Assembly: GCA_963555755.3 (NCBI GenBank)
Contig: OY820905.2
Span: 992,001 to 1,056,000 of the forward strand
DNA length: 64,000 nucleotides
Direction: 5' to 3'
Source: Nitrospirales bacterium
GTDB lineage: Bacteria; Nitrospirota; Nitrospiria; Nitrospirales; UBA8639
Shown here: positions 4,958 through 42,743 of the stretch, piece by piece
How the letters are laid out: each line of letters begins with the position of its first letter
Position numbering within the stretch: position 1 is the first letter of the stretch
The notes under the pieces: model-generated
Databases searched by the model: none
The model's input: only the letters and a program-made list of their open reading frames with translations
What the model was told of the DNA's origin: nothing
Position numbers and translations under genes: made by a program

Positions 4958-5845
4958 ATGAATGAAGCGATTACATGTCAAGGTCGTCGCCTCCCCCAAT
5001 CTGATCTGTGCTGGTTACGCCATCTGGTTTGCCGGCACCCTGACTGGAGCCGCCATAAAATAACCCAGCATATTTGTCGGCACTGGGGCTGGCAGACCCC
5101 GTCCGGACAACTGAAAACCTTTGCCGCCCGCAGCATGATCGACAAACTCGAACATCGCGGGCTCCTGAAGCTGCCCCCGATTCGTGTCGCCTCTCGACGC
5201 AACATCTTCCCCCCTTTCCGAAAGGGGTTTATGCCTCCCGAAGCCCCGCACATCGACGCAGCTCTCAAGACCCTGACGCCCCTGTCCATTCATATTCCAA
5301 CCTCACATTCCTACGAAGCCAGTTGTGTGGGATATTACCTGAGCCACCATCACTACCTCGGGTTCACCCGAACGGTCGGTGAACATCTCAAGTACCTGGT
5401 GCGGGATCGCTCCGGGCAGGATCTGGCCTGCCTCCTCTTCGGTTCCGCCGCCTGGAAAACCACCCCGCGCGACACCTTTATCGGCTGGGAGCCGGACACC
5501 CGAGCCGCCAACCTCAACTTCATGACCAACAATACCCGCTTTCTCATCCTGCCCTGGGTGCGTGTGCCGCATCTGGCCAGCCATCTCCTGGGCCGGGTCA
5601 TGAGACGTCTCCGGCAGGACTGGATCGAGAAATACGGCCATCCCGTCCACTTGGTGGAGACCTTTGTGGAGCGAGACCGCTTCAAAGGTATCTGCTATCA
5701 GGCCGCGAACTGGCTCTATGTCGGGCAGACCAAAGGCCGGTCCCGGCAGGACCGTGACAAGGCTCTGCGCGTGCCGGTGAAGGCAATTTATCTCTATCCC
5801 CTCATCCGCCACTTCCGACAGGCCCTCTGCCGGAGCAAGCCATGA
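4958..5845 (+). CDS. DUF4338 domain protein (DruA-like domain)
   Basis: HHYLG, GEHLKYLV, FGSAAW, RDTFIGW, NNTRFLILPWV, LVETFV, GICYQAANW, GQTKGR motifs; stop overlaps the transposase start (ATGA). Confidence 0.85.
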   Translation: MNEAITCQGRRLPQSDLCWLRHLVCRHPDWSRHKITQHICRHWGWQTPSGQLKTFAARSMIDKLEHRGLLKLPPIRVASRRNIFPPFRKGFMPPEAPHIDAALKTLTPLSIHIPTSHSYEASCVGYYLSHHHYLGFTRTVGEHLKYLVRDRSGQDLACLLFGSAAWKTTPRDTFIGWEPDTRAANLNFMTNNTRFLILPWVRVPHLASHLLGRVMRRLRQDWIEKYGHPVHLVETFVERDRFKGICYQAANWLYVGQTKGRSRQDRDKALRVPVKAIYLYPLIRHFRQALCRSKP

Positions 5846-7290: not shown

Positions 7291-7294
7291 TTAC

Positions 7295-11391: not shown

Positions 11392-11748
11392 GTGAAGCAA
11401 TGGGATGTGGGATGGGAATCGGAGATTTCCATTTGGTTTGTAGGATCGGGATGTCTCCCTGGTGCCATTATCGGATGCCTACTCTGGAAGTATGGGGTAA
11501 TAAAATGGGGGTTACTGACCAAACAAGAATATCGAGAGATGGATTGGGCCACCAGTAAATGGGGAGCCCTAGGCGCCTGGAAAATACCACCGGAATCTTG
11601 GAAGGATGAAAATGAGGAAGAAGAAGATCCAGCCAACTACCCATTTTCCCAGCCACCCATACAGCAAAAATTCAACAAGGTAAAAAGCAGGATAAAAAAA
11701 GATTTTGACTTGGAAATAGGTACAATTGTAGTAACTACTCAGGTGTGA
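11392..11748 (+). CDS. Hypothetical membrane protein; last codons replaced by IS66 end
   Basis: Removing IS66 copy 2 restores ...EIGTIVNS*. Confidence 0.4.
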   Translation: MKQWDVGWESEISIWFVGSGCLPGAIIGCLLWKYGVIKWGLLTKQEYREMDWATSKWGALGAWKIPPESWKDENEEEEDPANYPFSQPPIQQKFNKVKSRIKKDFDLEIGTIVVTTQV

Positions 11749-13183
11749 TGATCTTTGTAGTGAATTGTGCAGGCATAAAGGGGTGGCCGATCATGGCTTG
11801 TGAAATGGCTTGCAGCATGTTGCCGCCCTGCTTTCTCGCGGTAGAAAGGTAGCTTCGTATGCGGGCGAACTGCCTCGCGCCTTGAAGCGTTCGAAAACAC
11901 CCGGATATTTTGAGGCGGAGCTTGATCATGCGGATATCCTGTTCTGCCAGATTATTAGTGAAGGGAACCTGTCTGTCATGGAGGAACGCGAGCACGGAGG
12001 CTTCATGCTCGCCAAGACGGGTGAGGAGATTTTGGGCCTTGGTCTTTTTGGGCCGGCCTCGTGACTTTTTCTGTGGCGGTGCCGGAAGGGGGTTGGCCTG
12101 CCATCCGAGGGTGAGAAGATCCCTGTATTGTTTCAGCCAGGGGGTTTTCTGTTCTTCCGTTAACTGTGCGAGTTGCTTGCTGACAAACACGTTCATCGTC
12201 AGCAACAGGTCAAACATGTGTTTGGCCCATGGTTGTTCGTGCTGCTCGAACAGGCACGTGAGTTCCCGCAAATGATGGGCGTTACAGAGGCCGTGGGCAC
12301 AGTCATAGGAGAGATAGGGTTTCCAGAAATCGTGGATCAGGCGGCCAGCAAAATCCGGGAGGATCTGGAACTGCTCGATCGCCTCTCTTCCCCGTTTGGC
12401 GTGCACACCGTAAAAGGTCAACGTGGCCGTGCTGGCACTGTGGAGCCAGTGGAGCGTCCCGGCCGTGCGGACGCCGCTTTCATCGGCATGGAGGATGGGA
12501 CTCTTGCCGAGCGCTTCTTTGACCGCAGTCTCGAACGGCGCGAGGTGCTCATAACTTCGGCGGGAGGCCTCGTCAATGGTGGCGTCGCTGACCGAGGCGC
12601 CATACAGATCAGCCATCATCTGGCTGACACGGCGTAAGGGGATCAACTGTTGGTTCTGGAGGTAGACCAGGAGGCTGCGAAATCTGGGACCGTACTGTGC
12701 CGGCGCAGGCAGGTCATCAGGAAATGACGCCGTGACCGAGCGGCCGCATTGGGGGCAGGTTTTGATTGCTCCCCGATATTCGGTGACGTCGAGTTTTGGC
12801 TCCGGCAGTTCAAAGAGCTGCCGGCGTTCATAGCCGGTGACCGTCTCGTTGGTGAGGTCGGCATGGCAGGAACAGGAGTGAACAGGCAGGTGGACCAGGT
12901 GGTCTGGGGTTTCCACCTGTTTTAACGTCTGGCCGGCATGTCCCTGTTGGCCGCCCGGCTTTTTCCCGGAAGGTATGCGCAGGCTCTTGGTTCGGGGCTT
13001 GGCCGGTCCATCGGACGAGGGCGGTTTGCTGCTGTTGCGACTGTGTTGGTCGAGCCGCTGTGCCAGTTCGGTGACATGCGTGGTCAGCGCCTGCCCCTGT
13101 TCCTGCAGCGCCAGGATCAGTTCGACGAGCGCCTCGGGGTTGCTCTTGGCCAGGATGAGGAGTGCGTCGCGGGTGAAGGTCAT
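11735..13183 (-). CDS. IS66-family transposase (TnpC-like)
   Basis: Identical translation to 5842-7290. Confidence 0.92.
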   Translation of the reverse strand: MTFTRDALLILAKSNPEALVELILALQEQGQALTTHVTELAQRLDQHSRNSSKPPSSDGPAKPRTKSLRIPSGKKPGGQQGHAGQTLKQVETPDHLVHLPVHSCSCHADLTNETVTGYERRQLFELPEPKLDVTEYRGAIKTCPQCGRSVTASFPDDLPAPAQYGPRFRSLLVYLQNQQLIPLRRVSQMMADLYGASVSDATIDEASRRSYEHLAPFETAVKEALGKSPILHADESGVRTAGTLHWLHSASTATLTFYGVHAKRGREAIEQFQILPDFAGRLIHDFWKPYLSYDCAHGLCNAHHLRELTCLFEQHEQPWAKHMFDLLLTMNVFVSKQLAQLTEEQKTPWLKQYRDLLTLGWQANPLPAPPQKKSRGRPKKTKAQNLLTRLGEHEASVLAFLHDRQVPFTNNLAEQDIRMIKLRLKISGCFRTLQGARQFARIRSYLSTARKQGGNMLQAISQAMIGHPFMPAQFTTKIITPE

Positions 13184-14067
13184 GGCTTGCTCCGGCAGAG
13201 GGCCTGTCGGAAGTGGCGGATGAGGGGATAGAGATAAATTGCCTTCACCGGCACGCGCAGAGCCTTGTCACGGTCCTGCCGGGACCGGCCTTTGGTCTGC
13301 CCGACATAGAGCCAGTTCGCGGCCTGATAGCAGATACCTTTGAAGCGGTCTCGCTCCACAAAGGTCTCCACCAAGTGGACGGGATGGCCGTATTTCTCGA
13401 TCCAGTCCTGCCGGAGACGTCTCATGACCCGGCCCAGGAGATGGCTGGCCAGATGCGGCACACGCACCCAGGGCAGGATGAGAAAGCGGGTATTGTTGGT
13501 CATGAAGTTGAGGTTGGCGGCTCGGGTGTCCGGCTCCCAGCCGATAAAGGTGTCGCGCGGGGTGGTTTTCCAGGCGGCGGAACCGAAGAGGAGGCAGGCC
13601 AGATCCTGCCCGGAGCGATCCCGCACCAGGTACTTGAGATGTTCACCGACCGTTCGGGTGAACCCGAGGTAGTGATGGTGGCTCAGGTAATATCCCACAC
13701 AACTGGCTTCGTAGGAATGTGAGGTTGGAATATGAATGGACAGGGGCGTCAGGGTCTTGAGAGCTGCGTCGATGTGCGGGGCTTCGGGAGGCATAAACCC
13801 CTTTCGGAAAGGGGGGAAGATGTTGCGTCGAGAGGCGACACGAATCGGGGGCAGCTTCAGGAGCCCGCGATGTTCGAGTTTGTCGATCATGCTGCGGGCG
13901 GCAAAGGTTTTCAGTTGTCCGGACGGGGTCTGCCAGCCCCAGTGCCGACAAATATGCTGGGTTATTTTATGGCGGCTCCAGTCAGGGTGCCGGCAAACCA
14001 GATGGCGTAACCAGCACAGATCAGATTGGGGGAGGCGACGACCTTGACATGTAATCGCTTCATTCAT
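13180..14067 (-). CDS. DUF4338 domain protein
   Basis: Identical translation to 4958-5845. Confidence 0.85.
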   Translation of the reverse strand: MNEAITCQGRRLPQSDLCWLRHLVCRHPDWSRHKITQHICRHWGWQTPSGQLKTFAARSMIDKLEHRGLLKLPPIRVASRRNIFPPFRKGFMPPEAPHIDAALKTLTPLSIHIPTSHSYEASCVGYYLSHHHYLGFTRTVGEHLKYLVRDRSGQDLACLLFGSAAWKTTPRDTFIGWEPDTRAANLNFMTNNTRFLILPWVRVPHLASHLLGRVMRRLRQDWIEKYGHPVHLVETFVERDRFKGICYQAANWLYVGQTKGRSRQDRDKALRVPVKAIYLYPLIRHFRQALCRSKP

Positions 14068-14250
14068 GGCCCCGATTATGCCATGGGTGGAGCCGTTAGT
14101 CCAGAAAAAAATCAGGCTATAGAAAATTGACCTGAGTAGTTACCAATTGTAAATAGTTAACAGGAACCTTTTCTGTTTTTTTTGTGATCACCTTGCATTA
14201 ATTTTTTCTGTGGGCGCCCCCCCTTAGGCACAACTAAGCAAAATGCGCGA

Positions 14251-15545: not shown

Positions 15546-15631
15546 AGGCGGGGGGGTATCGTTTTTGGCCTTTTGCCTTACATGGAGTTTCTTGGCCATG
15601 GCGTTGCTTCCTGTGAGCGTTCTTGCTTGTG

Positions 15632-17665
15632 ATAGGGGTAGGGAGGGCGCATTGAGTTGCGCTCCCCCTCCCTCCGAACCGTACGTGCAGTTCTCCCGCA
15701 TACGGCTCTCCAGTCAGTAGGTTCCTATGGAGTGGACGAAACGAATATGGGCATCATTCAGGCTCGTGAACCCATGATCCGCAAAGAAGGCGTTCGGCCA
15801 CCGTTGATTGCGTGCGAGGCGTTGTCGATTCCTTCGGTTCCTTTTCAGAAGCATCCGGCGCAACCGCCGACGGATCATTCCATCGTAGGCCTTGAAGATG
15901 TTCCAAAAACAGTGCCGAAAGTAGTTGAACCACCCTTGCGTCGAGCGAGTGAGCCGGTGGAGAATTACCGCCAGCGAGTCGCCCGATTTCTGCGGCGTCA
16001 GCTCGCGGATGCGGGCGATGAACTTTCGGTGGCTCTTCGCTCGTGGAAACCGCAGCCGGCCTCGGAACGAATAGCCCAGAAACGAAAAGCTCTTCTCCCG
16101 CGAGTCCACGATGTGTGTTTTCTCGGGATGCAGTGTCAGCCCCTTGGCCTCCACCCACCGGCGCACCTCGGCCAGCGCCGCTTCGGCTTCTTCCGGCGTG
16201 CGACACAGGATGACACAGTCATCCGCGTAGCGCACCATCTGAAATCCGAGATCGGACATCCGATGGTCCAGGGGGTTGAGATAGACATTCGACAGCATGG
16301 GAGACAGCACCGCGCCTTGCGGCACACCGGCTTCCGGCGTCCACTCCCGCAGTTCTTCCAGAATCCCCTGGTTCAGACACTTCTTCACCAGGCCCACCAC
16401 ACGGCGATCCGAGATCTTCTGTTGCACTCTGGCCACCAGTCGATCTTTCGGAATCGTCTCGTAGTACTCCTGCACATCCGCGTCGACAACATACACATAC
16501 CCGGCGTCGAGCCATTCCTCGACGCACCGCAGGGCATCATGGCACCCGCGTCCGTGGCGAAAGCCGAAGCTTCGCGCATGGAACATGGCGTCCATAATCG
16601 GCTCAAGCACGTGGACCACTGCCGTTTGCACGACGCGATCCCGCACGGTCGGAATTCCCAACGGGCGCTTCGCCGACCTGTCGGGTTTGGGAATCCACCG
16701 CCGCCGCCCCGCTGCCGGACGATAGGTTCCGTCACCCAGTTCGGCTTGCAACCGATCGAGTTCCGCCCGCTCATGCTCGGCGAACTCCGAACACGTTTGC
16801 CGGTCAACGCCCGCAGCCCCGTTCTTGCCCAGGACCTTCTTGGCCGAGCAGGACAGGTTCAGGCTGCCAGACACCTTATCCCTCAACGTGTGCCATTTGC
16901 CTCCTCTCACGTTGTCTGCCATCAGTGTCGCCACCATGCGATCTGTCCACACCGCTCGATGAGCCCACTGGTCGATCCCAGGAAGCTCCCCAGCCGGGGT
17001 AGCCGAACACGGCACTGTGACGGGGATGTCATCTCGACGCGGGGTCGAGGCTTGACGTGTCGGCGGTTGAGGCATTTCACATCTACCTTCCTGCTCCCCT
17101 TCGCGCCACCGCGTTCTGGTGCACGGCTTCCCCGCTATTATGAGAGCTCTGACTTCTGTCGAGCCGCTTCATCCAACGTCATCGGTATCGCTTCGTTCGT
17201 TCCCCTGCGGCACGCGATACGGCACCGAGGGGCCTGGGCCATTGATCACGCAGCGTCCCCCACTGCGAATGGTCACGACACGGCGTCCACGTCCTTCACC
17301 CGACAGATCTCCCTGCTTAGCTCGTTTGACCTTCCGACCATTCCATCTCCAACCACCACCTTGCCATTTCGCCACGGTCGCTTTCCCACGTTACGTCACC
17401 GCCGTGACTTGCCGCGTCTATCCCCCGGGCAGACTCTCAGGTCGAAGGGATCTGCCGTCGCGCGATCAAGGGTTCGGACATCGCTAGGAGCCTCCCCGAC
17501 AGGCTTGGCCGAATCGAGTTCACGTTCGTTACGGACTGGTCGTTCGTCTCAGATTGCTCTCCACCCTTCCTCACGGAAACGCAGTGACCACTGTCGACTT
17601 CAGGCTGGTAACGTTCGCCTGAGAGGGACTTGCACCCTCCTGATCAAACGCCTTCACAGGCGCAC
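15632..17665 (-). mobile_element. Group II intron A, copy 1 (complete, 2034 nt)
   Basis: 5' GUGCG at 17665; DV GAGCCGUAUGCGGGAGAACUGCACGUACGGUUC and DVI ending ...ACCCCUAU at 15632; boundaries confirmed because removal restores the flanking palindrome. Confidence 0.92.
15714..17075 (-). CDS. ltrA: Group II intron reverse transcriptase/maturase (no endonuclease domain)
   Basis: GAAGVD, RPLGIPTVRDRVVQ, SFGFR, GVPQGAVLSP, RYADD, GWFNYF motifs. Confidence 0.92.
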   Translation of the reverse strand: MPQPPTRQASTPRRDDIPVTVPCSATPAGELPGIDQWAHRAVWTDRMVATLMADNVRGGKWHTLRDKVSGSLNLSCSAKKVLGKNGAAGVDRQTCSEFAEHERAELDRLQAELGDGTYRPAAGRRRWIPKPDRSAKRPLGIPTVRDRVVQTAVVHVLEPIMDAMFHARSFGFRHGRGCHDALRCVEEWLDAGYVYVVDADVQEYYETIPKDRLVARVQQKISDRRVVGLVKKCLNQGILEELREWTPEAGVPQGAVLSPMLSNVYLNPLDHRMSDLGFQMVRYADDCVILCRTPEEAEAALAEVRRWVEAKGLTLHPEKTHIVDSREKSFSFLGYSFRGRLRFPRAKSHRKFIARIRELTPQKSGDSLAVILHRLTRSTQGWFNYFRHCFWNIFKAYDGMIRRRLRRMLLKRNRRNRQRLARNQRWPNAFFADHGFTSLNDAHIRFVHSIGTY

Positions 17666-17850
17666 TCGCTGCAGCATCTCATGCTGCCTCTTCCTGGCGT
17701 CAGAGCCCCTTGGTCCGTGGGAAGAGGGCACGATACGATCGTGCAGCGACACAAGCAAGAAAGCTCACAGGAAGCAACGCCATGGCCAAGAAACTCCATG
17801 TGGCCAGAATTGGATGGCGGTAGGATAGAACCATATATTCTGTATGATCC

Positions 17851-22102: not shown

Positions 22103-22762
22103 ATCGACATAGGTAGGCGGTCACCCGCTTTCCCTGTCACACCACCGTACATATGGGTCCGTATACGGCGGTTCGGTGGGTTAAGCGATTGGCCACCAGG
22201 AGAGACTTCTCTCAACTGGTCACCCCTCGCCGGGCTTTCAACTGGGCGGTTCGCCGCGAGCGATTCGACACTTCCTCGTCAGTCCTTAGGGCTTCACCCC
22301 TATCCTCTGTCGGGAAGGCCAGGGTTAACTGGTTATTCAGCCGCTTGTCGCTCGTGAGTTCCGCTGCCTACATACCACTCCGCACCATTCAGGCCTTCAT
22401 CCCTGTCGGGACTACTATGCCCTCTGCTGACTCCTCCCGCCCGCTCTGAACTGATCACTCAGTCCTCAGTCTTGCTGCCAAGACAGACGAGAGGTCTCCC
22501 GAGGTACGCTCAACCGCCTTCAGCGCACGACCGCCAGATTTACACCCCGCCCCCTTGATGGATATGGACTTTGCGAATCCATGCTCGCTCGTCCGGAACG
22601 GACTGCCTCGTATCTGGTTCTTGTCCATCGGCCCGCGCCTTTGCTCTACGCTTCCTTCAGACCCCGCCTCACGACGACGCCCTTGCGCTTCGCGATGACT
22701 TCACCTCCATCAGGTTGTCAAAGGGACTTGCACCCTCAAGCTGTTGAACATGCTCGGCACAC
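22103..22762 (-). mobile_element. ORF-less group IIC intron (660 nt)
   Basis: 5' GUGUGCCGAGCAUG at 22762; short IIC-type DV GAACCGCCGUAUACGGACCCAUAUGUACGGUGGUGU; 3' ...UGUCGAU at 22103; no RT ORF between. Confidence 0.85.
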
Positions 22763-22831: not shown

Positions 22832-23577
22832 GGCTCTTCAGGAAAATTTGTGGGTCGAGCACCTAACGAATCCTTTCCAAGGCACTGAAAAACCAACGAA
22901 TTTTCCCACCGGGGACCGGTTTTATTTCGATGCTCATATTCAATTGACTCATGGGGAAGTTTCGGATCAGTTGCAATTTTGGTGGAGTCGAGGCCTATGG
23001 CGATGACGGACATACTATGCGAGGGGCTCCTGTTCTGATTTAGGCGTCCAATCCCGTTCCGTTCGTGGTGAGCTTGTCGAACCATGAATGGTACACATTG
23101 AAGTTTCTGACCCTTCGACAAGCTCAGGGCGAACGGATTCTGTCAAGGAAGGTCTGACTCAAGACGCGAGTCTCACTCCACCAAAATTGCGATTGATCCG
23201 AAGTTTCCCTCAGGGTCCACAAGCCGATTAAGCCTACGGTGCAGGGGCTATGGCATGTGGCCTTGTGGGAAACCTCCTGAGTAGCGCCCTTATGGGGCGC
23301 GGCCCACCCAGACGACGGAAAGTAACTCGTGAGGCAACTGAGGAGGCACAGGAGAGAAGAAAGGCCGAGGTCTGGTGAACCTGAATCCGTCATCCCCGAC
23401 GTTGGTTATCGGGGATCTATCTTAAGAACGAACCTGGATTCCCGATAACAGACGTCGGGAATGACGCGGGGAGGTACCTAGCGCCCTTATGGCGCGCGGC
23501 GCACCCGGACGACGGAGGATAGCATGAAGTTACTTAGGAGTTACCTGAGAAGTACCCACAAATTCTTCGGAGGAGCC
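22832..23577. mobile_element. 746-bp composite MITE (GGCTC ends), copy 1
   Basis: TIRs ggctcttcaggaaaatttgtgggt / acccacaaattcttcggaggagcc; 8-bp TSD aaacattc; near-identical inverted copy at 34156-34901. Confidence 0.9.
22964..23199. mobile_element. Nested MITE, GGATCA-TTGCAA family
   Basis: Ends ggatcagttgcaattttggtggag / ctccaccaaaattgcgattgatcc; 8-bp TSD gaagtttc; also present at 34534-34769. Confidence 0.88.
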
Positions 23578-23587
23578 AAACATTCTT

Positions 23588-24643: not shown

Positions 24644-24805
24644 ATCGACATAGGTAGGCGGTCGCCCGCTTTCCCTGTCACACCACCGTACATACGGGTC
24701 CGTATACGGCGGTTCGGTGGGTTAAGCTATCGGCAAACAGTCAATCGTGGAATCCCGAGTGAGTCGAAGTAGGCCTTGGGTAACGCAATCGTCAGGGCGG
24801 GACTC
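24644..24805 (-). mobile_element. Group IIC intron 3' remnant with end of RT ORF
   Basis: SPALTIALPKAYFDSLGIPRL (class C maturase C-terminus) then DV/DVI nearly identical to 22103-22180; cut by IS256. Confidence 0.82.
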
Positions 24806-30142: not shown

Positions 30143-30310
30143 GGATCATGCAGAATGTAGGGTTCTGGCAGCACAATACGATCAGGTGCACATAAAGTTA
30201 TGGCACTCCTCGTGGGTGATGTCGCCTCTCCTTTTGAGCGAATGGCGTCGTCTTGTATTTTTAGGATAGGGGTAGGGAGGGCGCATTGAGTTGCGCTCCC
30301 CCTCCCTCCG

Positions 30311-32304
30311 GTAGGGTCGAGGACTGGCGCGCCAACGGTAGGGGTCGGTGGCTCCTCCACCCCTTTCAGAGTGGGCCTCAATCCGACTCCCCTGGTCACG
30401 GTTCCAGTCCCCGCCACCTCAAACCCGGCGTGCTGATTTCCAGCACCGGGCTTTCCTGGATGCTTCACCTCAAGGGTTATGTGACCTCTCAGCCTGGAAG
30501 GACTTTCATGCCGACCCGTTGTACCGCACTCGGTAATCTCCATATAAGCCGAGTACCGTGTAGAGCCAAACCTTACTCCACCTCTTCCAGCCAAAACCTC
30601 GACGGTGGCGCACTCGCATCATGTGCCGCCGGACCTTCCGCTCCACCCAATCCTTCACGTAGGAGAAACACCGACTCGCATGCCCAATCCGAAAGTCGTT
30701 CACCCAGCCCCGTACGATCGGATTGATCATCGCGATCATCCGTCCCACCGGCTGGGATTGTCCGCGTCGGAACACTGCCTTGAGCTTCCGCAGCCACGCG
30801 GTGCGCCGCTTCACCTTCGGTATGTACTGCGGGCGCCACACCCCACGCCGCGACCGCACACGCCGAAAGTCAAAGCCCAGAAAGCCGAAGCTGCCTCCCT
30901 GACTCAGGTCCACGATCCGGCTCTTCTCCTCATTCACCTGAAGGGCTCATTGGGCCAACGCCTCTCGCAGCTTCCGCTCCGCGACCTGCGCCAGTTGTGC
31001 GTGGCGGCGATAGCCATCCACTAACACGACGAGGTCATCCGCAAACCGAACATACTCGAGATACGTATACTGGCCCTGCCGGGTTGTCTCCTTCAGCTGC
31101 TCCAGCCTCTCATCCACTTCCGTGAGATAGAGGTTGGCCAGCAGCGGGGCAATCACACCCCCTTGAGGCACCCCACGCGGGCCGGACGCCTTGACGATGA
31201 GGTTCACCAGCCGCAGGATCGCGGGATCCTGGATGCGTCGGGCCACCTTCGCCAGCAGCCGGTCATGCCGCACCGTGTCGAAGAAGGCCGCCAGATCCAC
31301 ATCAATCACTCGCGTCTTGTTCTGCACCATCGCCTGAGCCACCCGGCCAATCGCCTGGTGGGCTGTCCGTTTCGGGCGATACCCATACGACCCATCACGA
31401 AAATCCGCCTCAAAGATCGGTTCCAGCAGGAGCTTGAGCGCTCCCTATACCACGCGGTCCCGAATCGCGGGTATCCCTAAGACGCGGACTCGTCCACCGC
31501 CTTTCGAAATCTCCACGTGCCGGTTCCGCATCGGTCGGTAGGTCTGCGTGACCAGTTCGTCCCGCAGTCGTGCAAGAAAGGGCTCCACCCCCGTGGCCTC
31601 GATGACCGCAAACGTCACCCCATCAATGCCGGGGGCTCCGTTGTTTTTCTTGGCCATCGCATAGGCCGCGCGTAGCGTCGCCTCTTTGCACACGTGGACG
31701 TACAGGCCCCACACCCGCCATCGCTTCTCAGCCTTCGCCTTGACGTAGAGCCGCTGTCGCAGGTCTTGCAGTGTAATGGACGCCGTTGTCATCTCGTCCC
31801 TGCCTCCCATGTTGATCACAGCCTACAGCCAGTAGGGCTCCTTTGCTCCACAGGCATTACCCTGCTTCCTCGCTCCTACGAGCCCCTCCGCCACCCTCTC
31901 GTCTTCGACTCACTTCCCAGAGAGCTGGTTATAGAGCCGATCTTCCTCCAGGGATTTCGCCCTGGGACAAGGAGGGCTTCTCCAGTTGCGTCGTCTGTCC
32001 TTGCTCCCGTGCTGTCGCTCTCACCCCGCCGGAGTGGTCAGGCGTCTCAGCCCTATTTCGCCTGCCCATGCGGTCTTCGTCCTACGGTCAGGGACTCGAC
32101 CTCCGAGGTTCCGTACTTTCGAGGCTACCTCTGCGTTCACTTGCGTTACGGCCCGGGAACTCGCTCACCATCCTCTACGATGGCTTTGTCGATGGGCTTC
32201 AGCGTCTCGGTTTCTCTCCACGCTGCCATCCAAGCTACAGGGCTCAGGCTCTTACCCTGGTGGGCTTGCTTCCCACTGAACAGTCTCGCCTTACCTGGAC
32301 ACAC
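30311..32304 (-). mobile_element. Group II intron B (1994 nt)
   Basis: 5' GUGUG at 32304; DV AAGCCCGGUGCUGGAAAUCAGCACGCCGGGUUU; long DVI ending ...GACCCUAC at 30311; no TSD, as expected for reverse splicing. Confidence 0.9.
30506..31792 (-). pseudogene. ltrA: Intron B reverse transcriptase/maturase with two in-frame stops
   Basis: GAPGIDG, LGIPAIRDRVV*, YGYRP, GVPQGG, RFADD, FLGFDF in one frame; stops at 31445-31447 and 30947-30949. Confidence 0.88.
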
Positions 32305-32406
32305 AACCGTACGTGCGGTTCTCCCAAGCCGTTCACTTAATCTGTTGACACAAACCAGCAAACAGACATAAACAGCGCTTGTTTGCTGGCTTTCTTGTTT
32401 TGGATC

Positions 32407-34203
32407 ATGCAGAAAAAATCTTCCGCAACTTCTACGCTGAAGCACCCTCGGATACCGCTCGAGTACGGTGGCTTCCAGATCAACCACTGCAAGTCTCCGG
32501 TCTGCTCGAACTACGGCGTTCCGCCAGAACAAACATCGGTGCGTGGAAAAAATAGCTACACTCTGGATTCACGCAACCAAGGCATTTCATCCTGTATCTG
32601 CACGTCCTGCGGCGAAGGATTCCCTCTCAAGAGCAACCTCGGCATCGCAGAAGAAGTCGAGCGCATGTCGGCCTACCTGTCGCCTCGTGAGGTGGCGTTC
32701 TGCCGTAACGATGCCTGTACCAACCATACCGGTCAGGTGCCCGTAGGTACCGCTGGGGCATATGCCTCGTTCGGCAAGACCGCGATTGGCAGCCCCCGCT
32801 GGCGCTGTAGCGTCTGCGGTAAGACGTTCTCACAGAACACCAAGGCCACCGCCCGGCAGCGGGAACATCACAAGAACAAGACCATTTTCAAACTGCTGGT
32901 CAACAAGCTGCCCGTGCGCCGAATCATCGAAGTCGCCGACATCCACCCCAAGACCTTCTACCACCGCCTCGACTTCCTCCATCGCCAGTGCCAATCATTT
33001 GCCGCCCACCGCGAGCACGCCCTATCCACCCTCCCCATTCGGCGACTGTCCCTCGGCGTGGACCGGCAGGACTACCTTGTGAACTGGATGGTTCGCAAGG
33101 ACAAGCGCAACATTCAGCTATCGGCCATTGCATCAGTGGACAACGAACACGGTTACGGCTTCGGTGTCCACCTTCACTTCGACCCTTCTCTGGACAGCGA
33201 AGCTGTCCAAGCCGAAGTCGAGAAGAGCGGCGACCTTGGCATGCCCTATCCGCATCGTCGCGTTGCACGTCTGTGGCTCAATGCAGACCATGAGCGAGCC
33301 AGTGCCAAATCCCTACGCACTTCGCGGCGCAAACCCGGACTGCCAACGCAGATCGATGAAGCCTATGCCGCAGCATTGATGCGTGACGATATCGAAAGCC
33401 CCGATGCGCCGTCGCCCGTAGAACGACTTCCTGAATACGGGATGCAAACCCATGGCGAGTACACCATGTCTGGGCATTTTTTCTTCCTCAAACGCCTGCT
33501 GGGCAATATCCAAAAGTGGCGCTTCTTTATCGACCAAGACCCTGGACTGCGAGCCGCGTGCCTATCGGCGTTCCACGACGAGATCCGAGGCCGCACGGCG
33601 GATGCCTTCTCTGTTCGCATCACCAAAGATCTGACGGTGGACGAAACGCGTCAAAAATACAACGAAGCGAAGATGCTGTTCGTGCACGCAGAACTCGCGC
33701 ACCCAAAGATGAAGCCGCAGGAGGTCAAGTTGCTGCTGATCAAAGAGCGTCTGGCCTGTATGACGCCGCACGGGAAGTGGCAGGATCGGTGGCTTGACCA
33801 TCCTTTCCCGACCATGAGCGAGCCAGAGAAGACAGTGGCCTCCCTCACCAATCTGGGCGACTACGACGAAGAACACAAAGCTTGGCTCTACAACAAAGCG
33901 AGCTTGCATGGTGTCGATTCGTTCTTCAACCAAGTGCGTCGACGGCTCTCCCTGCTGGAGCGTCCGATCCATTCCAAATCCAACAATGGTCGGATATGGA
34001 ACGGATATTCTCCATATAACCCGGGTAATGTTGCAAAAGTACTCGACATCATGCGCACGGTGCATAACTACATCCTGACCGGCAAGGATGGCAAGACGCC
34101 AGCTGTGCGACTTGGATTGGCCCAAGCGCCGCTGGACTACGAAGACATTATTTATGGCTCCTCCGAAGAATTTGTGGGTACTTCTCAGGTAACTCCTAAG
34201 TAA
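32407..34203 (+). CDS. Putative transposase with two zinc ribbons, HTH and RNase H-like core; native C-terminus displaced by MITE
   Basis: CKSPVC..CTSC and CRNDAC..CSVC; RRIIEVADIHPKTFYHRLD (HTH); LGVD, FIDQD, GVDSFF acidic motifs; TPAVRLGLA. Native end ...EDIIYFASTD* at 34925-34927, inside the right TIR. Confidence 0.72.
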   Translation: MQKKSSATSTLKHPRIPLEYGGFQINHCKSPVCSNYGVPPEQTSVRGKNSYTLDSRNQGISSCICTSCGEGFPLKSNLGIAEEVERMSAYLSPREVAFCRNDACTNHTGQVPVGTAGAYASFGKTAIGSPRWRCSVCGKTFSQNTKATARQREHHKNKTIFKLLVNKLPVRRIIEVADIHPKTFYHRLDFLHRQCQSFAAHREHALSTLPIRRLSLGVDRQDYLVNWMVRKDKRNIQLSAIASVDNEHGYGFGVHLHFDPSLDSEAVQAEVEKSGDLGMPYPHRRVARLWLNADHERASAKSLRTSRRKPGLPTQIDEAYAAALMRDDIESPDAPSPVERLPEYGMQTHGEYTMSGHFFFLKRLLGNIQKWRFFIDQDPGLRAACLSAFHDEIRGRTADAFSVRITKDLTVDETRQKYNEAKMLFVHAELAHPKMKPQEVKLLLIKERLACMTPHGKWQDRWLDHPFPTMSEPEKTVASLTNLGDYDEEHKAWLYNKASLHGVDSFFNQVRRRLSLLERPIHSKSNNGRIWNGYSPYNPGNVAKVLDIMRTVHNYILTGKDGKTPAVRLGLAQAPLDYEDIIYGSSEEFVGTSQVTPK

Positions 34204-34901
34204 CTTCATGCTATCCTCCGTCGTCCGGGTGCGCCGCGCGCCATAAGGGCGCTAGGTACCTCCCCGCGTCATTCCCGACGTCTGTTATCGGGAATCCAGG
34301 TTCGTTCTTAAGATAGATCCCCGATAACCAACGTCGGGGATGACGGATTCAGGTTCACCAGACCTCGGCCTTTCTTCTCTCCTGTGCCTCCTCAGTTGCC
34401 TCACAAGTTACTTTCCGTCGTCTGGGTGGGCCGCGCCCCATAAGGGCGCTACTCAGGAGGTTTCCCACAAGGCCACATGCCATAGCCCCTGCACCGTAGG
34501 CTTAATCGGCTTGTGGACCCTGAGGGAAACTTCGGATCAATCGCAATTTTGGTGGAGTGAGACTCGCGTCTTGAGTCAGACCTTCCTTGACAGAATCCGT
34601 TCGCCCTGAGCTTGTCGAAGGGTCAGAAACTTCAATGTGTACCATTCATGGTTCGACAAGCTCACCACGAACGGAACGGGATTGGACGCCTAAATCAGAA
34701 CAGGAGCCCCTCGCATAGTATGTCCGTCATCGCCATAGGCCTCGACTCCACCAAAATTGCAACTGATCCGAAACTTCCCCATGAGTCAATTGAATATGAG
34801 CATCGAAATAAAACCGGTCCCCGGTGGGAAAATTCGTTGGTTTTTCAGTGCCTTGGAAAGGATTCGTTAGGTGCTCGACCCACAAATTTTCCTGAAGAGC
34901 C
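34156..34901. mobile_element. 746-bp composite MITE, copy 2 (inverted)
   Basis: Reverse complement of 22832-23577; own 8-bp TSD ttatttat. Confidence 0.9.
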
Positions 34902-34965
34902 TTATTTATTTTGCATCAACAGATTAAGTGAACGGCTTGCAGTTCTCCCGCATACGGCTCTCCAG

Positions 34966-36327
34966 TCAGTAGGTTCCTATGGAGTGGACGAAACGAATAT
35001 GGGCATCATTCAGGCTCGTGAACCCATGATCCGCAAAGAAGGCGTTCGGCCACCGTTGATTGCGTGCGAGGCGTTGTCGATTTCTTCGGTTCCTTTTCAG
35101 AAGCATCCGGCGCAACCGCCGACGGATCATTCCCTCGTAGGCCTTGAAGATGTTCCAAAAACAGTGCCGAAAGTAGTTGAACCACCCTTGCGTCGAGCGA
35201 GTGAGCCGGTGGAGAATTACCGCCAGCGAGTCGCCCGATTTCTGCGGCGTCAGCTCGCGGATGCGGGCGATGAACTTTCGGTGGCTCTTCGCCCGTGGAA
35301 ACCGCAGCCGGCCTCGGAACGAATAGCCCAGAAACGAAAAGCTCTTCTCCCGCGAGTCCACGATGTGTGTTTTCTCGGGATGCCGTGTCAGCCCATTGGC
35401 CTCCACCCACCGGCGCACCTCGGCCAGCGCCGCTTCGGCTTCTTCCGGCGTGCGACACAGGATGACACAGTCATCCGCGTAGCGCACCATCTGAAATCCG
35501 AGATCGGACATCCGATGGTCCAGGGGCTTGAGATAGACATTCGACAGCATGGGAGACAGCACCGCGCCTTGCGGCACACCGGCTTCCGGCGTCCACTCCC
35601 GCAGTTCTTCCAGAATCCCCTGGTTCAGACACTTCTTCACCAGGCCCACCACACGGCGATCCGAGATCTTCTGTTGCACTCTGGCCACCAGTCGATCTTT
35701 CGGAATCGTCTCGTAGTACTCCTGCACATCCGCGTCGACAACATACACATACCCGGCGTCGAGCCATTCCTCGACGCACCGTAGGGCATCATGGCACCCG
35801 CGTCCGTGGCGAAAGCCGAAGCTTCGCGCATGGAACATGGCGTCCATAATCGGCTCAAGCACGTGGACCACTGCCGTTTGCACGACGCGATCCCGCACGG
35901 TCGGAATTCCCAACGGGCGCTTCGCCGACCTGTCGGGTTTGGAAATCCACCGCCGCCGCCCCGCTGCCGGACGATAGGTTCCGTCACCCAGTTCGGCTTG
36001 CAACCGATCGAGTTCCGCCCGCTCATGCTCGGCGAACTCCGAACACGTTTGCCGGTCAACGCCCGCAGCCCCGTTCTTGCCCAGGACCTTCTTGGCCGAG
36101 CAGGACAGGTTCAGGCTGCCAGACACCTTATCCCTCAACGTGTGCCATTTGCCTCCTCTCACTTTGTCTGCCATCAGTGTCGCCACCATGCGATCTGTCC
36201 ACACCGCTCGATGAGCCCACTGGTCGATCCCAGGAAGCTCCCCAGCCGGGGTAGCCGAACACGGCACTGTGACGGGGATGTCATCTCGACGCGGGGTCGA
36301 GGCTTGACGTGTCGGCGGTTGAGGCAT
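34966..36327 (-). CDS. ltrA: Group II intron A reverse transcriptase/maturase, copy 2
   Basis: 453 aa; differs from 15714-17075 at a few residues; YADD intact. Confidence 0.92.
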   Translation of the reverse strand: MPQPPTRQASTPRRDDIPVTVPCSATPAGELPGIDQWAHRAVWTDRMVATLMADKVRGGKWHTLRDKVSGSLNLSCSAKKVLGKNGAAGVDRQTCSEFAEHERAELDRLQAELGDGTYRPAAGRRRWISKPDRSAKRPLGIPTVRDRVVQTAVVHVLEPIMDAMFHARSFGFRHGRGCHDALRCVEEWLDAGYVYVVDADVQEYYETIPKDRLVARVQQKISDRRVVGLVKKCLNQGILEELREWTPEAGVPQGAVLSPMLSNVYLKPLDHRMSDLGFQMVRYADDCVILCRTPEEAEAALAEVRRWVEANGLTRHPEKTHIVDSREKSFSFLGYSFRGRLRFPRAKSHRKFIARIRELTPQKSGDSLAVILHRLTRSTQGWFNYFRHCFWNIFKAYEGMIRRRLRRMLLKRNRRNRQRLARNQRWPNAFFADHGFTSLNDAHIRFVHSIGTY

Positions 36328-37551
36328 TGCACATCTACCTTCCTGCTCCCCTTCGCGCCACCGCGTTCTGGTGCACGGCTTCCCAGCTATTATGAGAGCT
36401 CTGACTTCTGTCGAGCCGCTTCATCCAACGTCATCGGTATCGCTTCGTTCGTTCCCCTGCGGCACGCGATACGGCACCGAGGGGCCTGGGCCATTGATCA
36501 CGCAGCGTCCCCCACTGCGAATGGTCACGACACGGCGTCCACGTCCTTCACCCGACAGATCTCCCTGCTTAGCTCGTTTGACCTTCCGACCATTCCATCT
36601 CCAACCACCACCTTGCCATTTCGCCACGGTCGCTTTCCCACGTTACGTCACCGCCGTGACTTGCCGCGTCTATCCCCCGGGCAGACTCTTAGGTCGAAGG
36701 GATCTGCCGTCGCGCGATCAAGGGTTCGGACATCGCTAGGAGCCTCCCCGACAGGCTTGGCCGAATCGAGTTCCCGTACGTTACGGACTGGTCGTTCGTC
36801 TCAGATTGCTCTCCACCCTTCCTCACGGAAACGCAGTGACCACTGTCGACTTCAGGCTGGTAACGTTCGCCTGAGAGGGACTTGCACCCTCCTGATCAAA
36901 CGCCTTCACAGGCGCACTCGCTGCAGCATCTCATGCTGCCTCTTCCTGGCGTCAGAGCCCCTTGGTCCGTGGGAAGAGGGCACGATAAGATCGTGCAGCG
37001 ACACAAGCAAGAAAGCTCACAGGAAGCAACGCCATGGCCAAGAAACTCCATGTGGCCAGAATTGGATGGCGGTAGGATAGAACCAGATATTCTGTATGAT
37101 CCCTAATCCCTCCCCGGATTCCGGTTCGGTACCCGAACCGACACTCCCCCTTTGCCCGTTTCCACCCTACATGCCACGAGCAAGCCACAGATTTGGCATA
37201 ATCCCTGGCAAAAGGGCCAGGAAGCCCCGACTCACCGGATGCACTCCCGCCTTTCAGACGGCGAAGTGTGCGGATGGACCCCTCACCGCGTTCTTTGGTG
37301 CGTTGCGGTCTAGTCAAAAAGGCCTTTTGAATTTCCTATTCCCGACTGAAAAAATCGGTGCAGGCATGCCACGCGCAGCGAGGCCAGAATGATCATCTTC
37401 GGTTTTATCGAACGGTTCTCTAATCGCAGAAAGTGGCATGGATCGGCCGATGGTTTGGCACCACTGGGGGCGGATGCGCAAACGGGCAAAGACTTCTTAA
37501 CGACGGGTCAGTGAGAATGGAGTCAAGGCGAAAAGGGGGGAACGAAAGAAA

Positions 37552-38116: not shown

Positions 38117-41100
38117 TTACGGATTCCTATGGACCGGATATTCGGTCGCGGTCCCAAAGTCCCAAATCGCGGTATCCCAGGTGGCATAGATGCCTGTATT
38201 GCTGGTGGGCGATTGCAACTCGACTGTCGTCTTGCCCTCCCCCGCCGCGCTGGTTGTGGTCTCACTGGTGTTCGTATCCCAGTAATTGGCGGTGGTGGCG
38301 GGGACGCCATACCTTTCCGGCAACCCCCCAAGCAGACCCCCCACAATCATGTTCCCACTCTCATTAACCCTCACCGCCCCAATAGCGTAGGTATGAGTGA
38401 GGGTGTTAGTCGCTCCATTATCCATCCACCCGATCAGGCCACCGGCAGCCTGGCCAGCCGTCACCATGGCAGTGGAGTAACTGTCGGCGATCGTGGAATA
38501 CTGCGAGGCGGCGCCCAGGAAACCGCCTGCCGCTCCTTGCGCGGCGGTGACTCCCGTCGTGTAGCTGGCCGAAATGCTGACCTCCTTACCCAACGTACCA
38601 GATATAAATCCGGCCAGCCCACCGGCATAATATTTCTCTGCTGTCACGTCTCCCTCCACTGAGACGTGGTCAATCTCACTGTCATCTAGTATCCATCCTG
38701 CAAGGCCGCCAACATAGTTATAAGCCGTGATGTTGACGTGGATCAGCACCAGGTTCCGAATCTCGCCATTCCTCACCACACCGAACAGACCTTGCCAATC
38801 TTCAGTAGGTCTGTTGATAAAAAGATTGTTGATGGTATGACCATTGCCTTCAAACACGGTTTGAAATTCTTGACCAGAGGAATATTTTCCAATACGTAAC
38901 CACCCCTTCCCGCTATTCCAAAAGGCATCGTTGGAATCGATGGCGCCATCGTCATTGGTGTCGAAATTGAGATTGGCGATGAGTTCGTAGCCGGAGCAGG
39001 TCACGATAGCCCCGTCACCCCCACACCCCGTCGTCACATCCTCAAACCCGTCATTGTATCCCGTGCCCGTGAGGTTGTTCCTGACATGATCCAATTGCTC
39101 CAAAGTCGCAATTTCAATGAGGCCATTGCCATCGTCGTCGATGTCGTTGACATTCACCACACCATCGCCATCGGTATCGAGGTCAAACTTCGCCGTGACC
39201 GTATACGGTTGATTCATCGTCAGGTGACAGTCTCCTGTCCCGCTACAGGCGCCACCCCATTCCGTGAAGACGGAGTCAAGATCGGCCACCGCCGATAGGT
39301 CCACTGCAGTCTCACTGGCAATGTCCTCGGTGCAGTCAGAGGGGCAAGATATTCCGGCTGGGCTGCTGGTGACAGTGCCACTGCCATCCCCAACGACGGT
39401 CACAGTGAGCGCGAAAAGCGGGTCAAACGTCGCCGTCACGCTTTGCACTTGATCCATCGTCACCTGACAGTTTCCCGTCCCGCTACACCCTCCTCCACTC
39501 CAGCCACTGAAGACGGAACCCGGATTGGCCGCGGCCGTTAAGGCCACGGTACTCCCACTGGCAATGTCCTCGGTGCAGTCAGCGGGGCAAGATATTCCGG
39601 CTGGGTTGCTGGTGACGGTGCCACTGCCTTGCCCGACGATGGTCACGGTGAGCGGGAAGAGTATGTCAAACGTCGCCGTAACCGCGTTCGCTTGATCCAT
39701 CGTCACCTGACAGGGTCCTATCCCACTGCAGACTCCGCCACTCCAGCCACTGAAGACGGAACCCTGATTGGCCGCGGCCGTTAAGGCCACGGTACTCCCA
39801 CTGGCAATGTCCTCGGTGCAGTCTGAGGGGCAAGATATTCCGGCTGGGCTGCTGGTGACGGTGCCATCCCCAACGACGGTCACGGTGAGCGGGAAGGCCG
39901 GGCCAAACGTCGCCGTGACGCTTTGCGCTTGATCCATCATCACCGCACAGAGTCCCGTCCCGCTACAGCCGCCGCCACTCCAGCCACTGAAGACGGAGCC
40001 CGCATTGGCCTGGACCGTCAGCGTCACCACCGTCCCCGGGTCATACACTGCGGCACAGTCATTGCCACACATGATCCCCGCAGGCGTGCTAGTCACCGTC
40101 CCACTCCCCGCCAGGGTGACTGTCAGCAATGGACTGCACCCCACCGTGCCACAGTGGGCCACTCTGAGGGCGCCATTCGTGGCGTCATAATAGCTGATCA
40201 CCGGGTACCCATCCGTCCCGATGGCCAGTGAGCTGGACCGCCCCACAGAGCCATTGTTGTCCACCGTCGTCGGCGTCTGAGCCCCGCTGCAGGCCGCATT
40301 GGTACAATGGACCACCTTGAGGTCATCATTCGTGGCATCCCAATAGCTGATCACCGGATTCCCATCCGTCCCGATGGCCAGTGAGCTGTACCGCCCCACA
40401 TAGCCATTGTTGTCCACCGTCGTCGGCAAGTCAAAGTCCATGCACGTCGCATTGGTGCAATGGACCACCTTGAGGGCACCCGGCCCCCCGTTATAATAGC
40501 TGATCACCGGATTCCCATCGGTCCCGATCGCCAGCGAGGTGTGCCATCCCATAATGCCGCTGCTATCTACCGTCGTCGGCGGGTCAAATTCCGTGCAGTC
40601 CGCACTCCTACAATGGACCACCTTGAGGGCACTATTCGTCCTGTCATAATAGCTGATCACCGGATACCCATCCGTCCCGATGGCCAGCGAGGTGTACGCT
40701 CCCACATCGCCGCTGCTGTCCACTGTCGTTGGTGGGTCAAATGCCGCGCACTCCGCATCGGCACAATGGACCACCTTGAGGTCATCATTCGTGGCGTCAT
40801 AATAGCTGATCATCGGATACCCATCCGGCCCGATCGCCAGTGAGGTGTCCCACCCCACATCGCCGCTGCTATCCACCGTCGTCGGTTCGTCAAATTCCGT
40901 GCACGTCGCATTGGTGCAATGGACCGCCTTGAGGTCATCATTCGTGCTGTCATAATAGCTGATCACCGGATACCCATCCGTCCCGATCGCCAGCGAGGTA
41001 TGCAGCCCCACATTGCCGCTGCTGTCCACCGTCGTCGGCGGGTCAACAGTCGTGCAGTTCACACTGCTGCAGTGTTGCACCTTGAGGGCAGTATTCGTGG

Positions 41101-41420
41101 CATCAAAATAACTGATCACCGGATACCCATCCTCCCCGATGGCCAGCGAGGGGAAGTCCCCCACATTGCCCTCCGTATCCACGGTGGTGAGAAGGATTTG
41201 GCCACTGTTATCCACCGTGATCGTGATGGCTGAGGTCGTCCAGAGATTATCAGCCGCGTCGATGATCTCGGCATCAATGCTATGAGACCCTTCGGGCCCG
41301 TTCCTCGTCTGCCACGTGCACTCGTAGGGCGCGCTGGTATCGATCGGACAAGGCCCAGCATCCCCATCAATCCGAATCTGCACGCTGGCTACCGCAATAT
41401 TATCCGCGGCCTCCACGCGG
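38117..41420 (-). pseudogene. Large repetitive surface protein lacking its N-terminus (Ig-like remnant, six ~57-aa propeller-like repeats, four Cys-containing InlB-B-like repeats, DxDGDG Ca-binding motif, GLUG-type C-terminal domain)
   Basis: TTVDxxGxVGxxxSLAIGxDGxPVISYYDxTN x6; LTVTxxGxGTVTSxPAGIxC...F..W.G..CSGxGxC x4; VGGLAG/AGGLIG motifs; no signal peptide. Confidence 0.75.
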
Positions 41421-41424
41421 ATAC

Positions 41425-42743
41425 AGTGGCCCAATCCTTCTCACTACCGTGGACGACGCCGGCAATGTGGGGCAGTACAGCTCACTGGCTATCGGGACGG
41501 ATCACTTCCCGGTGATCAGCTATTATGACGGCACGACTAGTGCCCTCAAAGTGGCCCACTGCACGAATGAGGACTGCAGCGGGGTGAAGACGCTGACGAT
41601 GGTGGATAGCGCTGACAATGTGGGGCAGTACAGCTCACTGGCCATCGGGGAAACATATGGCTACCCGGTGATTAGCTATTATGATGCCACGAATCAAGCC
41701 CTCATGGTGGTCCATTGTACGAGTGTGGACTGCACGGAGTTTGACCCGCCGACGATGGTGGACGACGCCGGCAATGTGGGGCAGTACAGCTCACTGGCCA
41801 TCGGGACGGATGGGTATCCGGTGATCAGTTATTATGATGCCACGAATCAAACCCTCATGGTGGTCCATTGTACGAGAGCGGACTGTACGGAATTTGACCC
41901 GCCGACGCTGGTGGACGACGCCGGCAATGTGGGGCAGTACAGCTCACTGGCCATCGGGGGGGATGGGAATCCCGTGATCAGCTATCGGGATGCCACGAAT
42001 ACGAGCCTCAAGCTGGTCCATTGCACGAATGGGGACTGCACGAGCGTTGATGCGCCGATGACGGTGGACAACAGCGGCAATGTGGGGCAGTACAGCTCAC
42101 TGGCCATCGGGACGGATGGGAATCCCGTGATCAGCTATCGGGATAGTACACAGAAGGACCTCAAGGTAGCCCACTGCACGAGTGTGGACTGCAGTGGGGG
42201 GCAGACGCTGACGGTGGTGGACAGCGACGGCAATGTGGGGAACTACACTGCACTGGCCATCGGGGGGGATGGGAATCCTGTGATCAGCTATCGGGATGCC
42301 ACGAATAGGGCCCTCAAAGTGGCCCACTGTACGAATAAGGACTGCAGTGGGGGGCAGACGCTGACGATGGTGGACAACGACGGCAATGTGGGGAACTATA
42401 CTGCCCTGGCCATCGGGACGGATGGGAATCCCGTGATCAGCTATCGGGATAGTACAAACAAGGATCTCAAGGTAGCCCACTGTGGCACGGTGGGGTGCTG
42501 ACGGTCACTCTGGCGGGCCATGGCAGTGGGATGGTGAGTAGCGCTCCTGCAGGGATCACATGTGGCAATGATTGTGCCGCAGTGTACGACCTGGGGACGG
42601 TGGTGACGCTGACGGCTGCGGCCAATGCGGACTCCGTCTTCAGTGGCTGGAGTGGAGGAGACTGTGATGGAGCAGGGACCTGTGAGGTGACGATGGATCG
42701 CGCGCGCGCAGTCACGGCGAGGTTTAATGTTGGAGCCCCGTGA
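41425..42743 (+). pseudogene. Paralogous surface-protein fragment (six propeller-like repeats plus one InlB-B-like repeat), frameshifted
   Basis: Same repeat unit as 38117-41420 on the opposite strand; frameshift at ~42497; no N-terminus. Confidence 0.75.

Follow-up and report, generated by a model that had tools for sequence, protein, structure and literature searches.

Group II introns are usually viewed as parasites of genes or of intergenic DNA, and the homing of one intron into another is itself known. Methanosarcina introns nest repeatedly (PMC4424553), an inner intron lies in domain I (DI) in Trichodesmium (PMC4649490), and the introns M.a.I5, UA.I3, P.l.I2 and B.th.I3 home to the RYADD-coding motif of reverse transcriptase (RT) genes through intron-binding sites 1 and 2 (IBS1 and IBS2; PMC2504315). 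The DNA analyzed here, referred to as the window, is a stretch of 64,000 nucleotides (nt) from a Nitrospirales bacterium (assembly GCA_963555755.3, contig OY820905.2, positions 992,001-1,056,000). It contains a twintron in which a group II intron, B, sits inside domain V (DV) of a host intron, A2. B is an endonuclease-less intron located one base before the 3' end of DV. Judging from its sequence, B most likely arrived by retrohoming, guided by the pairing of its exon-binding sites 2 and 1 (EBS2 and EBS1) with the 3' strand of DV. B is an intron-homing intron with a catalytic hairpin as its target, and the 13-14 bases that it targets are those most conserved in the intron ribozyme, not part of a gene or of intergenic DNA.

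Several described systems share features with B. The M.a.I5 group is also endonuclease-less, has IBS1 and IBS2 in conserved intron sequence, forms twintrons and is presumed to use the replication fork (PMC2504315). The two are set apart by their target: the M.a.I5 group uses the DNA within domain IV (DIV) that encodes the RYADD active site of the host's RT, whereas B uses the 3' strand of DV and does not lie in an RYADD-coding sequence. The TeI3-in-TeI4 twintrons of Thermosynechococcus elongatus likewise have a near-identical inner intron in diverged outer introns, a pattern that Mohr et al. (2010, PMC2882425) attribute to recent separate insertions at a site conserved in a second mobile intron. 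However, TeI3 lies between the first two ATGs of the TeI4 open reading frame (ORF) in DIV, is ORF-less and belongs to the intron family of a single genome (PMC2882425), whereas B encodes an RT and lands in DV, at a spot that relatives in many phyla also occupy. The Euglena gracilis chloroplast psbF twintron resembles B in that a group II intron lies within DV of another, and the classical idea is that its inner intron must splice first (review PMC8393795). It is a single organellar case in a protein gene, and the review's passage on it does not describe it as a lineage that targets DV through guide loops. The literature searched, which left most subscription journals outside its scope, did not describe any bacterial lineage that homes into DV.

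Intron B occupies positions 30311-32304 on the minus strand (1994 nt). The reference for its host is A1, an intact 2034-nt copy of intron A with an unoccupied DV, which was delimited at 15632-17665 on the minus strand by self-BLAST, Rfam and sequence. Self-BLAST of the window aligns 15631-15676 with 30265-30310 (100% over 46 nt), which is the 3' part of A, and 15686-17850 with 34938-37102 (99.26% over 2165 nt), which is the 5' part of A plus upstream sequence. On the minus strand the junctions read ...GGGAGAACCGCACGUACGGUU / GUGUGUCCAGG...(B)...CGACCCUAC / CGGAGGGAGGGGGAGCGC, and the corresponding place in A1 reads ...GGGAGAACUGCACGUACGGUUCGGAGGGAGGGGGAGCGC. B splits ...ACGUACGGUU / CGGAGGG of A2 with 0 bases gained or lost at the two junctions relative to A1, so that the inner intron is flanked by two parts of the outer intron, as in a twintron. 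The DV helix of A1 in the Rfam alignment ends ...UACGGUUC, and B sits between the last two helix bases. The junctions bear out the initial annotation, which proposed a precise insertion into DV in the same orientation without duplication or loss. The DV of A2 is not whole: its 3' 21 nt (32305-32325) alone adjoin B, and its 5' half continues from about 34939, past an insertion sequence (IS)-like element.

By its termini, ribozyme core, RT with maturase domain and exon pairing, B is a mobile-type group II intron. It matches RF02003 (D1-D4) with 112 bits at 32141-32278 (cut-off 49) and RF00029 (DV/DVI) with 43.4 bits at 30338-30455 (gathering score 40), the latter being the minus-strand location of its own DV and domain VI (DVI). 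The termini GUGUG...CUAC are found in all 13 full-length copies in the genome, which agrees with the consensus of 5' GUGYG and 3' AY (PMC4028801), and the ends are fixed to the base because 13 copies are available. The RT/maturase of an intact copy (P0001, 434 amino acids) is encoded by an ORF in DIV and matches RVT_1 (6e-30), GIIM (1.4e-17) and TIGR04416 (358 bits, cut-off 300). Pfam and NCBIfam profile searches found no endonuclease domain in this protein. The 434-codon frame is open in 11 of the 13 copies. In the window copy it is a pseudogene (30506-31810, minus strand) in which TAG replaces the CAG of other copies at codon 122 (31445-31447) and TGA replaces their TTA at codon 288 (30947-30949); copy c2540965 is also stopped at codon 288. 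The window copy would need RT supplied in trans from the 11 intact copies.

The initial annotation had also singled out the loop GACCGU at 32084-32089 (B positions 216-221), proposing that it pairs with the 5' exon end ACGGUU and serves as EBS1. The loop and its pairing proved to be real, and its identity as EBS1 is supported by both structure and covariation. An alignment of 24 diverse relatives results in a DI fold of 92 pairs, of which 62 show compensatory changes. In this fold the loop GACCGU(A) is at the place of EBS1 and caps a 4-bp hairpin within the Id arm (GACCGUA, B positions 216-222, 32083-32089, minus strand). In a fixed register over the last 7 exon bases, EBS1 pairs with IBS1 at 6.44 of 7 positions on average across 52 junctions of relatives, whereas shuffled partners average 3.93 and none of 2000 shuffles went above 4.46. 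Pairs of exon and EBS1 loop among the relatives include AAGACAUU with AAUGUCUU, CCUCAGU with ACUGAGG, GACACUA with UAGUGUC, and UACGGAA with UUCCGUA.

EBS2 (GUACGG) is the internal loop at B positions 189-194 (32111-32116, minus strand), 5' of the EBS1 hairpin, and its partner is exon -14 to -9. The longest EBS2-IBS2 helix has a mean of 4.58 in 53 junctions, with its exon end most commonly at -9; shuffled partners have a mean of 3.80 (sd 0.12) and a maximum of 4.19 in 1000 shuffles. The 5' exon of the window copy is the 3' half of the A2 DV (GGGAGAACCGCACGUACGGUU, 32305-32325, minus strand), with IBS2 CCGCAC at -14 to -9 and IBS1 UACGGUU at -7 to -1. Here EBS1 pairs at 7 of 7 positions (one G-U) and EBS2 at 5 of 6. 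The guide loops cover 13 of the 14 bases of the DV 3' side and leave out the bulge G at -8; the EBS2 partner is the upper-helix strand of DV and the EBS1 partner the lower-helix strand. A candidate EBS3 is B position 284, which pairs with exon +1 in 87%; among the 46 junctions with a placed 3' end (the intron 3' end was not found for 8 of 54 rows), 33 have C and 9 have U at exon +1, so variation there is scant. The 3' strand of B's own DV (...GCCGGGUU / U) pairs at only 4 of 7 positions with the window-type EBS1; therefore, B appears to be a poor target for itself.

The hairpin shape of DV, and not its sequence, could instead be the main signal, as for IIC introns that insert after terminator or attC hairpins. 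The hairpin at whose 3' base B inserts is indeed stable, the solved RTs nearest to that of B are IIC enzymes (GsI-IIC with 186 bits and E. rectale IIC with 171, followed by T.el4h with 128 and LtrA with 108), and GGA(A/G)AA at -20 to -15 is common to the DV sites and the one ectopic site in the genome. However, B has an EBS2-IBS2 pairing, which class C introns are stated to lack (PMC2504315), and of the 14 exon bases closest to the junction, pairing accounts for 13. The ectopic copy at genome position 1560268 and the relatives L013 and L014 lie at IBS1 look-alikes without a DV hairpin, and 23 relatives use non-hairpin sites with retargeted loops. It is unlikely that shape is the main signal. 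Assignment of B itself to group IIC was also considered and was rejected, since a covarying EBS2-IBS2 helix is present and non-hairpin sites are used.

The genome has 13 full-length copies of B with 97-100% identity, plus fragments. Nine of these follow ...GAAAGCCGUGUAUGGGAAAACCAUACGCACGG(A/U)U and precede UGAUGAGGGG, which is the same DV spot in host family C. This family is an ORF-less intron of about 753 nt, also found as ORF-bearing variants, and is unrelated to A. One copy, that of the window, is in the DV of A, two follow another B copy in a head-to-tail triple that is itself in a C DV, and one is ectopic (1560268, after GGGGUACGGAC). Leaving aside the two full-length copies preceded by another B, 10 of the remaining 11 are in DV, and the fragments at 1250583 and 9684 also adjoin DV or DVI sequence. 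In the tandem array (genome C1:2160017-2165998), the first B abuts ...CACGGAU and the last abuts UGAUGAGG, an arrangement that would fit repeated landing at an already occupied site. The array resembles the tandem integration of the IIB1 intron EcKTE56.groEL, for which experiment shows that recognition of mainly the 5' exon allows re-landing at an occupied site and yields head-to-tail copies (PMC12584367). The target of that intron is the end of groEL and not an intron (PMC12584367).

The copies of B have a mean identity of 99.1%, compared to a mean of 95.6% and a minimum of 90.9% for the host segments, which is the pattern expected if B landed recently and separately in hosts whose divergence was older. 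The alternative is a single chance insertion of B into a DV, after which the composite twintron was copied as a unit by host mobility or segmental duplication. Four C-type hosts that are identical over the 154 nt compared, and two pairs of copies with identical flanks, are consistent with such copying. However, B is found in the DV of the unrelated introns A and C, whose bodies, DVI and flanks differ, and in at least five diverged C variants in which the B copies are still 99 to 100% alike. The same base position is taken by relatives from many phyla, in hosts of different kinds (RF02005- and RF02003-type), and the guide loops covary with the DV variant occupied. Composite duplication is very unlikely as a general explanation and was rejected on the basis of the unrelated hosts A and C, the diverse hosts of the relatives, and a host divergence exceeding that of B.

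The survey of RT relatives covered the best 80 of about 600 matches, and 53 5' junctions were placed by alignment from the first bases of B. Relatives at 60-70% identity are labelled Acidobacteriota, Alpha-, Beta- and Gammaproteobacteria, Spirochaetia and Rhodothermales, and further ones in the same range are labelled Chlorobiaceae, Nitrospirota, Planctomycetota and others. The DV 3' base is the site of 27 of the 53 junctions; two are in partial DVs, one is unjudgeable and 23 are elsewhere. The 3' flanks of the relatives are diverse DVIs (CGGAGGG, UGAUGAGG, CUGUGAGG, UCUCAGGG and others). A second D1-D4 match (RF02005 or RF02003) is located upstream on the same strand in 10 of the 18 DV-labelled loci scanned. 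These matches are of two types; therefore, the hosts come from different intron families. It is a direct observation that one landing spot in DV is used in host introns unrelated to each other, both within this genome and across many phyla.

These results support, with a qualification, the proposal of the initial annotation that B may be specialized for the DV of other introns. It holds for 10 of 11 of B's own copies and for 27-29 of the 53 relatives, but not for the 23 junctions outside DV. The homologue search and its table of flanks place sub-clades, but not the whole clade, at unrelated non-intron sites. A tree of the RTs, with 47 rows, has DV sites on most of its major branches, and two clades of six rows each that are entirely non-DV are nested within. 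The tree left out 7 of 54 rows with a longest ORF of less than 380 amino acids (L018_1200, L021, L066, L072, L074, L079 and L080), and row L015 is unreliable with a branch length of 9.9. Several non-DV relatives (L039, L046, L053, L054, L056, L060, L065 and L066) have a U-rich IBS2 (UAUUUUC, UUUUG) and 3' exons beginning CAGG or CGGG. The non-DV clades may have another conserved target.

DV might also be a site that is merely tolerated, with wide landing followed by persistence where insertion is harmless, and with dead introns gathering debris. The DV of A2 holds two unrelated elements and the region is a mosaic of mobile DNA, both of which are consistent with this. Survivorship alone, however, leaves the identical base position across phyla and the complementary loops unexplained, and B is also found in otherwise intact C hosts, both ORF-less and ORF-bearing. 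Mere tolerance is extremely unlikely to account for the pattern, and guided homing to the DV 3' strand remains the preferred explanation.

Two sub-lineages of B differ in their guide loops. The window type includes the window copy and the fragment 1250583-1251094, which have in common EBS1 GACCGUA, EBS2 GUACGG and five more diagnostic bases; their exons are CCGCACG-UACGGUU and CCGCAUG-CACGGUU, respectively. The major type includes 11 copies with EBS1 GUCCGUA and EBS2 GUAUGA. Six of these follow CCAUACG-CACGGAU or the close variant CUGUACG-CACGGAU, the ectopic copy follows UACGGAC, and in all of these the A at -2 pairs with U217; two others follow another B copy. The changes between the types are two-sided, with C192/G(-12) versus U192/A(-12) and A217/U(-2) versus U217/A(-2). 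In DI, the window copy differs from the major variant at 10 positions, all of them unpaired in the consensus fold; therefore, the window type diverged without breaking a helix. The EBS1 and EBS2 changes of the window type fit the A-type DV.

Variation in the DV itself was also observed. Some host DVs (L027, L048, L049, L059 and one at genome position 228319) end in ACGGAA or ACGGAU and not in ACGGUU, an ending that deprives the G of the AGC triad of its partner. The EBS1 of the resident intron is complementary to the variant ending (UUCCGUA, GUCCGUA). An unoccupied C-type DV with ACGGAU is also present in the genome.

The proposed route of homing begins with B RNA, which would reverse-splice into the DV-coding DNA strand while this strand is single-stranded at a replication fork, with the nascent lagging strand serving as the primer. 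This route is suggested because the RT has no endonuclease and because the sense strand of every one of the 13 full-length copies lies on the template of the lagging strand (origin near 2.70 Mb and terminus near 0.54 Mb, as judged by GC skew). A replication-fork route has been proposed for other endonuclease-less introns, for which a lagging-strand orientation bias has also been reported (PMC2504315, PMC8919778). DV would suit B as the most conserved stretch of any group II intron, one which is present in many copies and whose disruption would be harmless to the cell. In the RNA, the guide loops of B and the 5' strand of DV would compete for the same bases. Since IBS1 and IBS2 are the bases of the DV 3' strand, the splicing-competent fold of B and the host DV would be mutually exclusive, and an intact host would presumably not regain its core until B has been spliced out. 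The idea that the host splices after B cannot apply to A2 itself, because the DV split by the IS-like element prevents the core from being rebuilt even after B splicing.

A number of observations weigh against this interpretation or limit it. The splicing of B, its retrohoming and the order of splicing are all deduced from sequence. The DV label of the relatives relies on a simple pairing rule plus four manual calls (L027, L048, L049 and L059, with DVs ending in ACGGAA), and the two partial DV calls (L012 and L050) were added by hand. At the 23 junctions outside DV, EBS1 matches the intron's own exon, so that the loops have been retargeted, and the label needs at least seven changes on the RT tree, whose root is weak with one long outgroup. 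As read from these data, homing into DV is habitual in parts of the clade but is not fixed throughout it. Within the genome, the four identical host copies mentioned above mean that some twintron copies may be duplicated composites and not separate landings. Unoccupied DVs with a matching ACGGUU are found in A1, A3 and at 318367, 491922, 3676911, 174646 and 1424169, and DV occupancy is far from saturated. Two major-type copies that follow ACGGUU (c1379250 and c2223405) have a mismatch at -2, where U217 faces U, and c2540965 combines the major EBS2 with an EBS1 of type A217. Because the orientation of B follows that of its host introns, the strand bias does not count as independent evidence.

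A broader version of this explanation has about an even chance of being correct. It states that DV homing is ancestral in a cross-phylum, endonuclease-less clade of hyperparasites whose two guide loops track the DV variants of their hosts, that DV is also preferred by an unclassified IS family, and that intron cores are shared safe havens in which the host is silenced. Because the target is so conserved, a few changes in the guide bases would allow one lineage to colonize unrelated intron families in any genome that has them. The twintron would represent a natural, sequence-programmed competition between the guide loops of one ribozyme and the catalytic helix of another for a single strand, and both ordered splicing and the suppression of host-intron mobility become directly testable. 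There is also a consequence for annotation, since pipelines that rely on an intact DV miss the outer host of such twintrons; missed outer introns (PMC8919778) and the exclusion of twintrons (PMC4028801) have both been reported.

The locus in the window is a relic, as the RT of B is broken and the DV of A2 is also split by the IS-like element. In the 5' to 3' direction of the minus strand, the order is a dispersed repeat of about 185 nt, the 5' part of A2, the IS-like element, 21 nt of DV, B and the 3' end of A2. The repeat (36918-37102, minus strand) is directly upstream of A2 and is its 5' exon. The 5' part of A2 (34939-36917, minus strand) begins with GUGCG at 36917, contains DI-DIV and the 5' half of DV ending ...GCGGGAGAACUGC, and has 99.26% identity to A1; its boundary with the IS-like element near 34939 has a 1-nt ambiguity. 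The RT/maturase ORF of A2 (453 amino acids, 34966-36327, minus strand) is open in the ORF list, and the A1 ORF of the same length matches RVT_1 (5.6e-40) and GIIM (2e-14). The 3' part of A2 (30266-30310, minus strand) consists of the last DV base (C), DVI and the 3' end ...CCCCUAU, and is 100% identical to A1 15632-15676.

The IS-like element is located at 32326-34938 on the plus strand (2613 bp), with terminal inverted repeats of 23-24 bp and an 11-bp target duplication with one mismatch. It has a putative transposase ORF of 606 amino acids (32383-34203, plus strand), for which Pfam gave no match and NCBIfam gave sub-threshold matches to IS1-type zinc-binding N-termini alone. The genome contains four copies (in the window and at 775533, 1251116 and 3058591), and all four have DV sequence at both ends. 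They occupy the same DV position in both orientations with the 11-bp duplication GGGA(A/G)AAC(C/U)GC, and one copy joins an A-type half DV to a C-type half DV. Among 17 loci of metagenome relatives (L101-L117, 68-90% amino acid identity), eight have DV-like sequence at an end (L102, L108, L110, L111, L113, L115, L116 and L117) and the others have GGGTAGCCCC-like targets. The comparison of ends is based on these closer relatives; distant ones (about 50% amino acid identity, four genomes of the phylum) gave no clear ends in motif and inverted-repeat searches. The IS may be a second, DNA-based element that prefers DV.

A non-coding 747-bp element is nested at 34155-34901 and has 99.87% identity to window positions 22832-23578. 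Further copies are at genome positions 2002266, 3603083 and 3606780, with 99.3-99.9% identity between copies. The other IS copies do not have this element, and the three further copies are solo with short direct target duplications; therefore, it looks like a non-autonomous transposon.

Around the genome, the 185-nt repeat (151-335 in a query of A1 plus flanks) recurs in about 20 copies that are nearly full-length and have at least 95% identity. Similarity stops at the base before the GUGCG of A, and every A copy follows the repeat. The repeat is probably the landing site of intron A as well as its 5' exon. In the window, the repeat (17666-17850 and 36918-37102) ends in the hairpin GCAGCAU GAG AUGCUGC followed by AGCGA, and the 3' exon of A1 (15580-15631) is an inverted 52-nt piece of the same repeat. 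The position of A behind this hairpin recalls hairpin-directed landing.

Other group II pieces are also found in the window. These include matches to RF02001 (134 bits) and RF01998 (55 bits) at 22392-22678 and a short DV of a different type at approximately 24644-24714 (genome 1016644-1016714). The genome as a whole has at least 24 DV matches that do not belong to B. A diverged repeat array at 39181-42725 (75-83% identity, in both orientations around 41.3 kb) overlaps an ORF of 1105 amino acids (38117-41434). An inverted repeat of 2416 bp with 99.96% identity joins 4879-7294 and 11731-14146, with ORFs of 482 and 295 amino acids in the second arm, and probably represents two copies of another insertion sequence.

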